Shown piece by piece: positions 32,902-33,752 of a stretch of DNA of 64,000 nucleotides. The notes beneath the pieces are model-generated. The model worked only from the letters and a program-made list of their open reading frames with translations. It was not told the DNA's origin and made no database searches. The stretch's first letter is position 1. Each line of letters begins with the position of its first letter. The position numbers and the translations under genes are program-made. The stretch lies in the sequence record MT446390.1. One strand, 5' to 3'. The stretch comes from Escherichia phage TH12.

Positions 32902-32976
32902 GGCCCTGTAGCTCAATGGGAGAGCTGTCAGCTCATAACTGATAGGTAGCTGGATCGAAACCAGCCAGGGTCACCA
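32902..32976 (+). tRNA. tRNA, anticodon CAT (Met or Ile2/lysidine type)
   Basis: Manual cloverleaf: acceptor GGCCCTG/CAGGGTC, D-arm GCTC-AATGGGA-GAGC, anticodon loop CTCATAA, T-arm GCTGG-ATCGAAA-CCAGC, discriminator A + CCA. Confidence 0.7.
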
Positions 32977-32979
32977 ATC

Positions 32980-33056
32980 CGAGGCATAGCTCAATTGTAT
33001 AGAGCAACGGACTTCTAATCCGTAGGTTGAAGGTTAGAATCCTTCTGTCTCGACCA
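32980..33056 (+). tRNA. tRNA-Arg (anticodon TCT)
   Basis: Manual cloverleaf: acceptor CGAGGCA/TGTCTCG, anticodon stem ACGGA/TCCGT, loop CTTCTAA, T-arm GAAGG-TTAGAAT-CCTTC, CCA end. Confidence 0.7.
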
Positions 33057-33074
33057 ACTTTAAGTGAGGAAAAT

Positions 33075-33419
33075 ATGAAAGGCAATATTTATTTTGTAGT
33101 TCATGATTTAACGTTTTATTTTAATGAATATGATACAGTTATTTCTCATCGATTGATTAATTCACTTTATCAGCATGCCGATTACATCTATGTTCAAAAT
33201 GAATTCGGACATTGGAAGTTCATTAAAAACCGTTCAGGGTTAACTAGTTTTGAATACTTTGATCGTAAAGACCTTTTAAACGAAATCCCATTGCAACATC
33301 GGTTTCAGAAACGTGAATCATTATATTATTGCCGTCATATACCAAACGCCGAATGTGTTAATGAAGCGATTAATCTATGGCGTCGGCGTCGAGAGCAAAT
33401 TGATGATATGCCAAAATAA
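33075..33419 (+). CDS. hypothetical protein downstream of tRNA pair
   Basis: Start trimmed to ATG 33075 (MKGNIYFVVHDL...) with RBS GAGGAAA; the longer track ORF overlaps tRNA-Arg. Confidence 0.45.
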   Translation: MKGNIYFVVHDLTFYFNEYDTVISHRLINSLYQHADYIYVQNEFGHWKFIKNRSGLTSFEYFDRKDLLNEIPLQHRFQKRESLYYCRHIPNAECVNEAINLWRRRREQIDDMPK

Positions 33420-33519
33420 GAAGCCGGGTCGCTACCGGCAAGTCGTCGGACTGATGTTCCCTGAGTAAGGACTGGTCTTAATAAATCTTTACGATTTGTT
33501 AATATCCCCTTACATCACA

Positions 33520-33680
33520 GCAGAAACGGCGCACAGAATTATCGATTCGAGGAAATATCTTTGCCGTAAGCCGAGTAGCGTTTTTGACGGAACGTTCGGA
33601 TATGGTCGAGATATGGCCTTTTAAAAATATTGAGTAGCGTCAACTGCTTAATAACCGGGTTCGAATCCCGGCGTTTCGTA
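33520..33680 (+). ncRNA. candidate structured small RNA (tRNA-like T-arm motif); boundaries approximate
   Basis: No ORF; contains CCGGGTTCGAATCCCGG (T-arm-like) but no complete cloverleaf could be folded by eye; T4 carries small stable RNAs (rnaC/rnaD) in its tRNA cluster. Confidence 0.25.
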
Positions 33681-33722
33681 CAAACACTTGCCTTAGTAGG
33701 TGGAAACCCCGACAAGGTATAT

Positions 33723-33752
33723 AGCCCCTTCCGAAAGGTTGGGGCTTTTTTG
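33723..33752 (+). terminator. rho-independent terminator
   Basis: AGCCCC-ttccgaaaggtt-GGGGCT followed by TTTTTT. Confidence 0.7.

Follow-up and report, generated by a model that had tools for sequence, protein, structure and literature searches.

Orthologues of the T4 species 2 and species 1 RNAs in the tRNA region of Escherichia phage TH12

Two tRNA genes of Escherichia phage TH12 are followed by a protein gene and then by 333 nt (33420-33752) without a conserved ORF. The question of what this stretch specifies was addressed in a 64-kb window of the phage genome (record MT446390.1), meaning the whole 64,000-nt piece of DNA analysed, which is T-even (RB69/T2-like) phage DNA. The initial annotation had put the ORF-free part at about 300 nt, had pointed to the small stable RNAs of T4, and had suggested a tRNA-like or decoy RNA. 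The link to T4 is borne out: rnaD and rnaC of T4 are together orthologous to this stretch. The feature is already known, being an ordinary T-even copy of the T4 species 2 and species 1 RNAs. The tRNA-like part of the suggestion was right for rnaC, in which covariation backs the acceptor stem, the T arm and the four-way junction. The region 32813-33751 is read here, with a probability of roughly 85%, as the tRNA operon of T-even phages in its T2-type form, carrying orthologues of rnaD and rnaC, the latter a tRNA mimic with a four-way junction at its core.

The T4 species 1 and species 2 RNAs have been known since the 1970s, and hundreds of sequenced phages carry near-identical copies, a 341-nt stretch being present in 806 phage records. 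The two genes are often left blank in annotations, or mislabelled as a 'hypothetical protein' or an odd tRNA, and pipelines will keep flagging them as novel.

Layout of the tRNA operon

The features of the region are listed in Table 1. One transcript would probably start at the MotA-type middle promoter, pass through tRNA(CAT), tRNA-Arg, the 114-aa ORF, rnaD and rnaC in that order, and stop at the intrinsic terminator.

Table 1. Features of the tRNA operon, in window coordinates.
Feature	Position	Strand	Remarks
Putative T4-type middle promoter of the tRNA operon	32813-32839	+	Conserved with the region 5′ of T4 tRNA-Gln and with SHP1
tRNA, CAT anticodon	32902-32976	+	CCA encoded; ARAGORN; Rfam RF00005, 59.4 bits
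tRNA-Arg (TCT)	32980-33056	+	CCA encoded; ARAGORN; Rfam RF00005, 71.1 bits
114-aa ORF, homologue of T2L 'trna.2' ORF	33075-33419	+	ATG 33075, stop 33417-33419
rnaD orthologue (T4 species 2 RNA, 119 nt)	33416-33535	+	About 87% identity to T4 rnaD
rnaC orthologue (T4 species 1 RNA, 139 nt)	33542-33680	+	tRNA-like cloverleaf; 137/139 identical to T4, ungapped
rnaC acceptor-like stem, 5′ strand	33543-33549	+	Pairs with 33672-33678: 7 positions, 5 standard, 2 invariant U.U
rnaC enlarged 'D arm'	33550-33619	+	AGG/CCU helix running into a long irregular hairpin; two sequence types
Apical loop UUGACG of the enlarged D arm	33584-33589	+	Proposed kiss with 33638-33643
rnaC 'anticodon-like' hairpin	33628-33653	+	Stem about 10 bp; 6-nt loop CGUCAA at 33638-33643
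rnaC T arm, 17-mer CCGGGTTCGAATCCCGG	33655-33671	+	Stem CCGGG/CCCGG, loop UUCGAAU; covariation in stem
rnaC 3′ tail U-A-C-A	33679-33682	+	In place of discriminator plus CCA; mature T4 RNA annotated to end after UA
Trailer hairpin between rnaC and terminator	33689-33719	+	RNAfold
Intrinsic terminator of the tRNA operon	33723-33751	+	RNAfold: hairpin 33723-33746, then six T through 33751
Late-promoter motif TATAAATA	33753-33760	+	Outside the operon, marks its end; serves downstream gene 33796-34422

The putative promoter consists of a MotA box TTTGCTTTA (32813-32821), a spacer of 12 nt and a -10 element TATTAT (32834-32839), and its middle-promoter function in the window is inferred from these motifs. 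In T4, a middle promoter lying just 5′ of the tRNA cluster drives its transcription, which stops after the species I RNA gene (PMC2330249). The strong terminator noted previously at the end of the stretch was recovered by RNAfold; a simple terminator scanner missed the hairpin because its stem holds a 2x2 U.U internal loop. The terminator sequence is homologous to the T4 sequence 3′ of rnaC, and 'terminator' is annotated beneath the homologous stretch in two GenBank records (H37 and H39). The trailer hairpin is conserved in SHP1 and VR20, both of which are without rnaC, and there it lies directly 3′ of rnaD.

Both ARAGORN and Rfam confirmed the CAT and Arg-TCT tRNAs, 3 nt apart. The acceptor stem and D arm of the former are identical to those of the T4 gene annotated as tRNA-Ile, whose DNA anticodon is likewise CAT, and it is probably the orthologue of this lysidine-type tRNA-Ile2 gene, not a tRNA-Met.

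The 114-aa ORF that follows was also correctly located, but the description of it as wedged in is not supported: it is an ordinary T2-type trna.2 ORF, which 425 phage records, those of T2, RB51 and AR1 among them, have at the same place and which is missing from the T4 tRNA region. T2L carries ORFs trna.1 and trna.2 in its tRNA region, and primer #24 of the same study, designed for T2L trna.2, matches the 5′ end of the window ORF (PMC2330249). The ORF has a Shine-Dalgarno sequence (GAGG, 33066-33069) and matches phrog_3355 of the PHROG database (E = 5.7e-50). Searches of Pfam, NCBIfam and PDB sequences gave no significant match; its AF2 model (pLDDT 76) matched no PDB fold, and BFVD returned only uncharacterised proteins of T4-like phages.

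Immediately 5′ of rnaC, the rnaD orthologue aligns with 118 of the 119 positions of T4 rnaD (NC_000866 71053-71171). The two conserved blocks are the same in both phages, and the variable middle hairpin differs in sequence yet is still paired. Within the invariant 5′ block is a hairpin at 33423-33439 with a 5-bp stem and a 7-nt loop (alignment A4, RNAalifold), the 3′ block UCACAGCWGAAACGGCGCAC is invariant, and the predicted fold has a minimum free energy (MFE) of -38.6 kcal/mol (z = -3.35). T4 rnaD lies directly 3′ of tRNA-Arg, so that its 5′ end arises from 3′ maturation of that tRNA. In the window, however, the preceding gene is the 114-aa ORF, an arrangement shared with T2 and with about 425 further phages, and it is this ORF, not the CCA end of tRNA-Arg, that abuts rnaD, a difference of context and not of homology. 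The ORF stop codon falls within the first four bases of rnaD. A pairing of GAAACG in the rnaD 3′ block with CGUUUC in the rnaC 3′ strand was considered and rejected, being lost where rnaC has CGUUCC and in Marfavirus. A convergent SNP in rnaD arose as phage BW1 adapted to a semi-permissive host (PMC12685909).

According to the 'hypothetical protein' annotations of several GenBank records, the 333 nt would code for small proteins; such annotations lie beneath the match in many records, and the window does hold ORFs of 42, 47 and 58 aa. Stops break all three frames in the T4 homologue, however, substitutions are compensatory in stems and show no codon periodicity, and the T4 RNAs from the same stretch are known non-coding stable RNAs, so that the probability of this explanation is practically negligible.

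Conservation and cloverleaf structure of rnaC

The window rnaC differs from T4 rnaC (NC_000866 70908-71046) by two substitutions, one of which leaves U.G in place of a U-A pair in the anticodon-like stem. It has the same place between rnaD and the terminator and the same flanking spacer, AAUUA. Identity to T4 falls from 137/139 in rnaC to about 87% in rnaD and about 79% in the trailer. Apart from purifying selection, the tRNA region may have undergone homing or gene conversion (PMC2330249), which could account for part of this near-identity. During T4 infection, species 1 RNA accumulates as a separate, stable RNA about 140 nt long, cut from a tRNA precursor (PMC9697503, PMC2330249); T4 RNAC has been detected by northern blot, its function being given as unknown (PMC9697503; PMC3014915).

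A comparison set of 33 distinct rnaC homologues was assembled from at least eight phage genera. The length of rnaC is constant at 140-144 nt (including two extra 3′ bases) down to 55% identity. A covariance model (CM) built for rnaC scored the window copy at 160 bits and T4 at 160.7 bits, the former being the sole match in the 64-kb window. No copy was found in the bacterial genome contigs scanned. A search with the looser pattern GTTCGAGGA...GGCGTTCCGT picked up 12 further IMG/VR loci, as many as expected by chance, and all were rejected by the covariance model.

The fold is a four-way cloverleaf, with an acceptor-like stem, a 70-nt hairpin for the D arm, an anticodon-like hairpin and a canonical T arm. 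The initial annotation had seen the perfect T-arm-like sequence but could not complete a cloverleaf, because the 70-nt hairpin replaces the D arm and the anticodon-like loop has 6 nt instead of 7. It had also proposed that further structure would be refuted if covariance models recovered nothing beyond the two tRNAs. Rfam did find only these two, yet this would mislead, since it reflects the lack of an Rfam family for rnaC or rnaD and not missing structure.

The cloverleaf agrees with the single-sequence fold (MFE -50.2 kcal/mol, z = -4.55) and was recovered by RNAalifold from 30 sequences, with compensatory changes in 20 of 35 pairs. In the CM-based alignment of the 33 distinct homologues, pairing holds in 98.1% of cells, compared to 87.3% in shuffled alignments and 37-48% when partner columns were slid, and compensatory changes occur in 25 of 44 pairs; none of 500 shuffles equalled any observed measure. 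Every helix of the enlarged D arm shows compensatory changes, as do eight of the nine counted pairs of the anticodon-like stem. The middle pair of the T arm is G-C in 14 sequences, U-A in 17, A-U in one and U.G in one. In the acceptor-like stem the third pair is either A-U (12/33) or G-C (21/33), and the other four standard pairs are invariant. A tertiary contact between the T loop and a 'GG' is only hinted at, by one clade with many simultaneous changes.

These data bear on whether rnaC is a decaying tRNA pseudogene, functionless, with an insertion in its D arm, and transcribed and processed merely through its position in the operon. It keeps tRNA parts (T arm and acceptor stem) and is without CCA, D arm and 7-nt anticodon loop; both ARAGORN and the Rfam tRNA model reject the window copy; and the gene is missing from some T4-like phages, the T4 tRNA region being dispensable for phage development (PMC2330249). 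Decay is, however, very unlikely given the much closer identity to T4 than in rnaD or the trailer, the compensatory pairs, which extend throughout the 'inserted' hairpin, the constant length, the invariant and complementary loops, and the retention of rnaC in at least eight genera and in varied tRNA contexts. Alignment of the rnaC 3′ half to 154 phage tRNAs gave no convincing parent tRNA. The same alignment exposed ARAGORN mis-calls of rnaC itself.

The position of rnaC varies between genera. In Karam-, Moon- and Gelderlandvirus it occupies the interval that separates tRNA-Trp from tRNA-Gly; rnaD is missing there and the spacers are short (5 nt as read in Karamvirus). In Winklervirus the next annotated gene 3′ of rnaC is tRNA-Trp. 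The gene is precisely missing in Dhakavirus SHP1, and a CDS takes its place in Gaprivervirus VR20. Within tRNA arrays rnaC thus shows a mobility like that of tRNA genes. This mobility also bears on a purely cis-acting explanation, in which the stretch is a structured 3′ end that provides an RNase P site and a terminator, matures and stabilises the upstream tRNAs and the ORF mRNA, and releases the RNAs as by-products. The stretch does lie at the operon 3′ end in T4, T2 and the window, rnaD and the trailer remain together where rnaC is missing, and the ORF stop codon overlaps rnaD. But in Karam-, Moon-, Gelderland- and Winklervirus rnaC is in mid-array, without rnaD or terminator, among neighbours with their own processing signals; a processing site needs neither invariant complementary loops nor a conserved 70-nt hairpin shape; and the T4 RNAs accumulate as stable species (PMC9697503). 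A purely cis-acting role is accordingly considered unlikely.

The 3′ tail has an invariant C and A in 33/33 sequences; 27 encode U-ACA, including the window and T4, and six Marfavirus-type sequences encode U-CCA. Could rnaC then be a working adaptor, CCA-tailed and aminoacylated like tmRNA or the tRNA-like structures of plant viruses, at least in some phages? The encoded U-CCA of the Marfavirus clade and the invariant C and A would fit, and an acceptor stem with a T arm is a minihelix accepted by the CCA-adding enzyme and by some synthetases. However, most of the set encodes U-ACA and the annotated mature T4 RNA ends in UA, the two acceptor U.U pairs with C1-G72/U73 are not known to match any E. 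coli identity set, and ARAGORN found no tmRNA-like tag, which leaves an adaptor role scarcely credible.

Proposed loop-loop pairing, probable processing and possible role of rnaC

The apical loop of the enlarged D arm (UUGACG) and the anticodon-like loop (CGUCAA) are complementary at 6/6 positions in 33/33 sequences, and the search pattern used for rnaC placed no constraint on either loop. The probability that two given 6-nt loops are Watson-Crick complementary by chance is about 3.5e-4, and the duplex energy of the proposed kiss is -7.5 kcal/mol. The central pair is A-U in 27 sequences and G-C in the six of the Marfavirus clade (UUGGCG/CGCCAA), with no mixed combination; the U to C change in this clade is the only one in an otherwise invariant CGUCAA loop. 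This covariation represents a single clade and one evolutionary event, and the five other pairs, being invariant, are uninformative. That the loops are complementary and change together implies a loop-loop kiss, probably within one RNA, as judged from the aligned sequences. Such an intramolecular kiss needs the 70-nt hairpin to be bent back on itself. Alternatively, the UUGACG/CGUCAA pairing may be intermolecular, giving a dimer. In the proposed model the apical loop pairs with the anticodon-like loop, so the 'anticodon' would be locked and rnaC non-decoding. The comparative model yields concrete mutants, in the 70-nt D arm, the covarying 6-bp kiss and the UACA/UCCA tail.

RNase P dependence of T4 rnaC processing is part of the T4 literature of the 1970s-80s. 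Since the acceptor/T end of rnaC resembles that of a tRNA, host tRNA-maturation enzymes probably excise it in the window phage as well, with RNase P cutting 5′ of it and exonucleases acting on its 3′ side; that RNase P cleavage would double as 3′ end formation for rnaD.

The best guess as to function, with odds well short of even, is that of a stable mimic of tRNA that does not decode. By this view rnaC would bind or titrate some protein that recognises tRNAs by their acceptor/T-arm half, in a non-essential, host-dependent accessory role. A more specific form of this reading is more doubtful: rnaC would be a self-locked mimic, with a codon-like GAC (GGC in Marfavirus) in its oversized D-arm loop paired to GUC (GCC) in its own anticodon-like loop and an L-shaped body showing only the acceptor/T-arm face. 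It would act on a host factor that recognises tRNAs, as a sponge or adaptor, and so contribute to host range. Candidate targets of such a sponge would be a tRNA-targeting defence nuclease or a CCA-end-modifying toxin. Were the self-locked mimic real, an RNA orphaned for about 50 years would gain a role, and phage anti-defence RNAs a new class.

Comparison of rnaC with known RNAs

Relative to canonical tRNAs (RF00005), rnaC shares the 7-position acceptor stem, the UUCGAAU T loop, the four-way junction and the location in tRNA arrays, and RNase P processing is presumably common to both. It differs in the 70-nt hairpin that stands for the D arm, a 10-bp anticodon-like stem with a 6-nt loop paired to another loop, a linker of 8-9 nt between helices 2 and 3, a tail of ACA instead of CCA, and the two U.U pairs in the acceptor stem. 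Of the defining tRNA elements, rnaC has an acceptor stem and a T arm whose loop is 7 nt long, while the D arm, the 5-bp/7-nt anticodon arm and the encoded CCA are lacking. Across 33420-33752, tRNA models gave no match at the gathering threshold (29 bits) or at E <= 10, and ARAGORN gave none; the sole tRNA-type match was to tRNA-Sec, at 16.6 bits against a threshold of 47 bits.

The tRNA-like domains of tmRNA, the bacterial Y-RNA-like YrlA, plant-virus 3′ ends and mascRNA are handled by tRNA enzymes, and all these RNAs resemble rnaC in carrying an acceptor/T mimic within a non-decoding RNA. They provided no sequence or covariance-model match: neither ARAGORN nor Rfam found a tmRNA in the stretch, and the lone YrlA match (16.6 bits) fell over the true tRNAs. 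Moreover, rnaC is without a tag ORF, a Ro-binding stem and a pseudoknotted acceptor. We know of no D-arm loop kissing an anticodon-like loop in the tmRNA, YrlA, plant-virus or mascRNA families.

The closest parallels to the proposed kiss are HIV TAR-TAR* and ColE1 RNA I-RNA II, in which loops of 6-7 nt are likewise complementary along their full length. Those kisses are intermolecular or engineered, whereas rnaC has both loops in one 139-nt RNA, with a pairing deduced from sequence comparison only. Compared with phage tRNA decoys, the anticodon-like loop CGUCAA does contain GUC, but it has 6 nt and is fully complementary to the second rnaC loop. With this loop apparently locked by intramolecular loop pairing, as its sequence suggests, rnaC would not readily fit a simple bait for anticodon nucleases.

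The tRNA operon and the RNAs at its 3′ end

By sequence, the source of the window is a T-even phage; the top matches of the kilobase at 32800-33800 are RB69/JS09/HX01-like Escherichia phages (96–98% identity). The 341 nt 3′ of the 114-aa ORF are present in 806 phage records, T4, T2, T6 and RB phages among them. The corresponding DNA of the T4 reference genome bears the annotations rnaD ('species 2 RNA', 119 nt) and rnaC ('species 1 RNA', 139 nt); the two close the tRNA cluster, directly 3′ of tRNA-Arg. The window carries rnaD, rnaC, a trailer hairpin and the terminator in that order. 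Direct alignment identifies the structured non-coding stretch as its copy of T4's two small stable RNAs, bearing out the link to such RNAs drawn in the initial annotation. The idea that the stretch encodes small proteins is contradicted by stop codons in the T4 homologue and by a substitution pattern that speaks against coding. The feature is already known, and these are orphan RNAs of long standing. RNAC has been seen by northern blot (PMC9697503), a convergent SNP in rnaD accompanied the adaptation of a T4-like phage to a semi-permissive host (PMC12685909), and both reports, like PMC3014915, give the function of the two RNAs as unknown.

Features of the tRNA operon, with rnaC elements in 5′ to 3′ order
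Feature	Position	Strand	Details
Putative T4-type middle promoter	32813-32839	+	MotA box TTTGCTTTA, N12 spacer, -10 TATTAT
tRNA(CAT)	32902-32976	+	ARAGORN and Rfam; CCA encoded
tRNA-Arg(TCT)	32980-33056	+	ARAGORN and Rfam; CCA encoded
114-aa ORF	33075-33419	+	GAGG ribosome-binding site upstream
rnaD copy	33416-33535	+	about 87% identity to T4 rnaD (direct alignment)
rnaC copy	33542-33680	+	137/139 identical to T4 rnaC, gap-free (direct alignment)
Acceptor-like stem	33543-33549 with 33672-33678	+	7 positions, two invariant U.U oppositions
Enlarged D arm			at D-arm position; AGG/CCU helix running into 70-nt irregular hairpin
Loop UUGACG	33584-33589	+	apical loop of 70-nt hairpin
Linker			A-rich, 8-9 nt; between enlarged D arm and anticodon-like hairpin
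Anticodon-like hairpin			at anticodon-arm position; 10 bp, 6-nt loop
Loop CGUCAA	33638-33643	+	loop of anticodon-like hairpin
T arm	33655-33671	+	canonical; perfect 17-mer CCGGGTTCGAATCCCGG
rnaC 3′ tail			U-A-C-A where a tRNA has discriminator plus CCA
Terminator	hairpin 33723-33746, then U run	+	end of 333-nt stretch
Late-promoter motif	33753-33760	+	TATAAATA; two bases past terminator U run, 36 nt before ORF 33796-34422
ARAGORN mis-calls of rnaC	L010 980-1073; L016 7816-7911; L025 8491-8585		other fetched phage loci

Box, spacer and -10 element are arranged as in T4 middle promoters, and near-identical sequence stands upstream of T4 tRNA-Gln and of the SHP1 tRNAs; the site overlaps the end of an upstream 171-aa ORF. 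The tRNA pair, 3 nt apart, and the terminator noticed initially were both recovered, the former by ARAGORN and Rfam alike. The first gene, 'tRNA-Met(CAT)', shares its acceptor stem, GGCCCUG/CAGGGUC (C4-G69, C5-G68), and its D arm with the annotated tRNA-Ile gene of T4, which likewise has CAT as its anticodon in DNA. By the identity rules, these features make it probably a tRNA-Ile2 of the lysidine type, which reads AUA, and not a Met tRNA. In T4, transcription of the cluster starts at a middle promoter immediately 5′ of it, passes through all tRNAs and stops at a terminator 3′ of the species I RNA gene; the region is dispensable for phage development (PMC2330249). Downstream of the window's operon, ORF 33796-34422 (208 aa, phrog_2280) has a Pro/Lys/Ala-rich central part, which yields a weak, sub-threshold TonB-like match.

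The protein gene described as wedged behind the tRNAs is indeed present. It belongs to phrog_3355, occurs in 425 phage records including T2, is absent from T4, and lies directly upstream of rnaD in those fetched loci that have it. Phage T2L, without segB, has two ORFs, trna.1 and trna.2, and at its 5′ end the window's ORF matches the primer directed at trna.2 (PMC2330249). The primer match, the 425 records and the position upstream of rnaD together identify the gene as a common T2-type arrangement. Window-type tRNA-Arg abuts rnaD directly, with no ORF between, in two loci (L022, L029), so the ORF represents an insertion/deletion polymorphism at that junction. No match to the protein was found in Pfam or NCBIfam, and none that was significant among PDB sequences. 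Its AF2 model is of moderate confidence (pLDDT 76) and gave no match in a PDB fold search; the model's only relatives, in BFVD, are uncharacterised T4-like phage proteins.

Structure of rnaC and rnaD

Homologues of rnaC gathered from GenBank phages, IMG/VR and metagenomes comprise 33 distinct sequences with identity as low as 55%, each 140–144 nt long counting two extra 3′ bases. A covariance model built from the homologues hits every locus exactly once (124–162 bits), the window too. The same four-way cloverleaf emerges from RNAalifold, from single-sequence folding and from pair counting; in it, standard pairs fill 98.1% of cells across the 33 sequences, compared with 87.3% in shuffles and 37–48% with slid partners; 25 of 44 pairs have changed on both sides. 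At the third pair of the acceptor-like stem, 12 sequences have A-U and 21 have G-C, and the enlarged D arm occurs in two quite different sequence types, each helix staying paired via compensatory changes. The perfect T-arm-like 17-mer of the initial annotation is the rnaC T arm, and its guess of a tRNA-like RNA is upheld by a cloverleaf with an acceptor-like stem and a canonical T arm. The aberrant anatomy of rnaC accounts for its rejection by tRNA finders and for the failure to complete a normal cloverleaf by eye. At gathering thresholds, the proposed Rfam check returned only tRNAs, with nothing over the 333-nt stretch, yet the stretch is structured and the covariance model built here finds rnaC in it. 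At permissive thresholds, Rfam gave only tRNA-Sec over the 333 nt (16.6 bits, E = 3.4). Standard covariance libraries miss rnaC and rnaD only because no family exists for either. In other loci, odd tRNAs of ~94 nt (Stop-tta, Phe-gaa, Met-cat) that ARAGORN occasionally calls are in truth the 3′ two-thirds of rnaC, and many deposited genomes (GenBank records under hits H34, H42, H78 and others) label rnaC/rnaD 'hypothetical protein' or 'tRNA-Lys', or leave them blank.

The apical loop of the long hairpin is the perfect complement of the anticodon-like loop. In 33/33 sequences, each of the two is 6 nt long with a standard closing pair, and complementarity holds at all six inter-loop pairs. In the Marfavirus-type clade (six sequences), the central A-U has become G-C (UUGGCG with CGCCAA); mixed combinations were not found among the 33, though the search pattern left both loops unconstrained, and a G.U intermediate would still pair. 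At this base composition, two given 6-nt loops would be Watson-Crick complementary by chance with a probability of ~3.5e-4. We put the probability of a 6-bp kissing interaction between the loops at about three in four; the covariation is one evolutionary event, and five of the six pairs are invariant. For the kiss to form within one molecule, the long hairpin has to bend back; the large loop inside it and the strict conservation of overall length would permit this. Intermolecular pairing, giving a dimer, is a possible alternative to this intramolecular kiss. As a curiosity, the central triplets GAC/GUC, and GGC/GCC in Marfavirus, are codon/anticodon pairs for Asp and Gly. A weaker hint concerns a D-loop/T-loop-like tertiary contact: GG in the internal loop beside the AGG/CCU helix accompanies a UUCRARY T loop in 30/33 sequences, and the three Winklervirus-like ones (L015, L020, L028) have CG there and a rewritten T loop, UGCAUSC (UUCGAAU to UGCAUCC or UGCAUGC; columns 77-78 and 124-130 of the rnaC alignment, A6), one clade with many simultaneous changes.

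Comparison of 11 rnaD homologues revealed an invariant 5′ block of ~45 nt, holding a hairpin of 5 bp and a 7-nt loop whose closing pair covaries (A-U to G-C), and an invariant 3′ block (UCACAGCWGAAACGGCGCAC), joined by a long-range helix. The middle hairpin takes at least three unrelated sequences with pairing kept. Covariation is modest (5/25 pairs compensatory) because diversity is low. On the minus strand, the first rnaD hairpin (33423-33439), with a T-rich run after it, scored terminator-like and could stop antisense transcription.

Placement and possible role of rnaC

In Karamvirus, Moonvirus and Gelderlandvirus, rnaC fills the space that separates tRNA-Trp from tRNA-Gly; in Winklervirus, tRNA-Trp is the next annotated gene downstream. 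Spacers in these arrays are short (in Karamvirus, where one was read, 5 nt), and no rnaD accompanies rnaC in any of the four. In its placement rnaC acts like a tRNA gene, and its mid-array position in four genera contradicts a purely cis-acting 3′ processing or stability element. A dead tRNA pseudogene is likewise contradicted: rnaC is nearly identical to that of T4 while the flanks diverge, compensatory changes run all through the 'insert', and at least eight genera have kept it. Dhakavirus SHP1 (L004 1496-1704) precisely lacks rnaC, its rnaD running into the trailer, and Gaprivervirus VR20 (L041 1197-1905) has a 127-aa CDS in its place. The slot that follows the rnaD 3′ block (…GGCGCACC) and precedes the trailer (…ACACUUGCC…), filled by rnaC in T4 and the window, is thus variable. 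Bacterial genomes scanned with the pattern used yielded no rnaC copy. The Marfavirus clade encodes a U-CCA 3′ end and the others U-ACA, the tail C and A being invariant everywhere; a chargeable adaptor would be possible only for this UCCA clade. Its members (L013, L017, L018, L019, L030, L039) have the changed kissing pair together with U-CCA, and some 500 nt upstream, after tRNA-Asn, they carry a divergent element resembling rnaD, as in Marfavirus F48.

In T4, RNase P generates the 5′ end of species 1 RNA and, by the same cut, the 3′ side of species 2. Since its acceptor/T half mimics a tRNA, rnaC would be cut out by tRNA-maturation enzymes. The anticodon-like loop would be locked by the kiss, so that rnaC would not decode. 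As a possible role, the decoy against anticodon nucleases raised in the initial annotation fits poorly, given the sequestered 6-nt loop. That rnaC might act as a stable mimic binding some tRNA-recognising factor, host-dependent and non-essential, is a guess with the odds well against it. At the DNA level, T4's homing endonuclease SegB recognises a motif that tRNA genes share, the conserved T-psi-C stem-loop (PMC2330249); the rnaC T arm carries this motif, so that rnaC might also be a SegB target in phages without segB. The comparative model, chiefly the covarying loop-loop pairing, opens direct experiments on these old orphan RNAs, which in T4 are co-transcribed with the tRNAs, accumulate as stable RNAs and are dispensable (PMC3014915, PMC9697503, PMC2330249).
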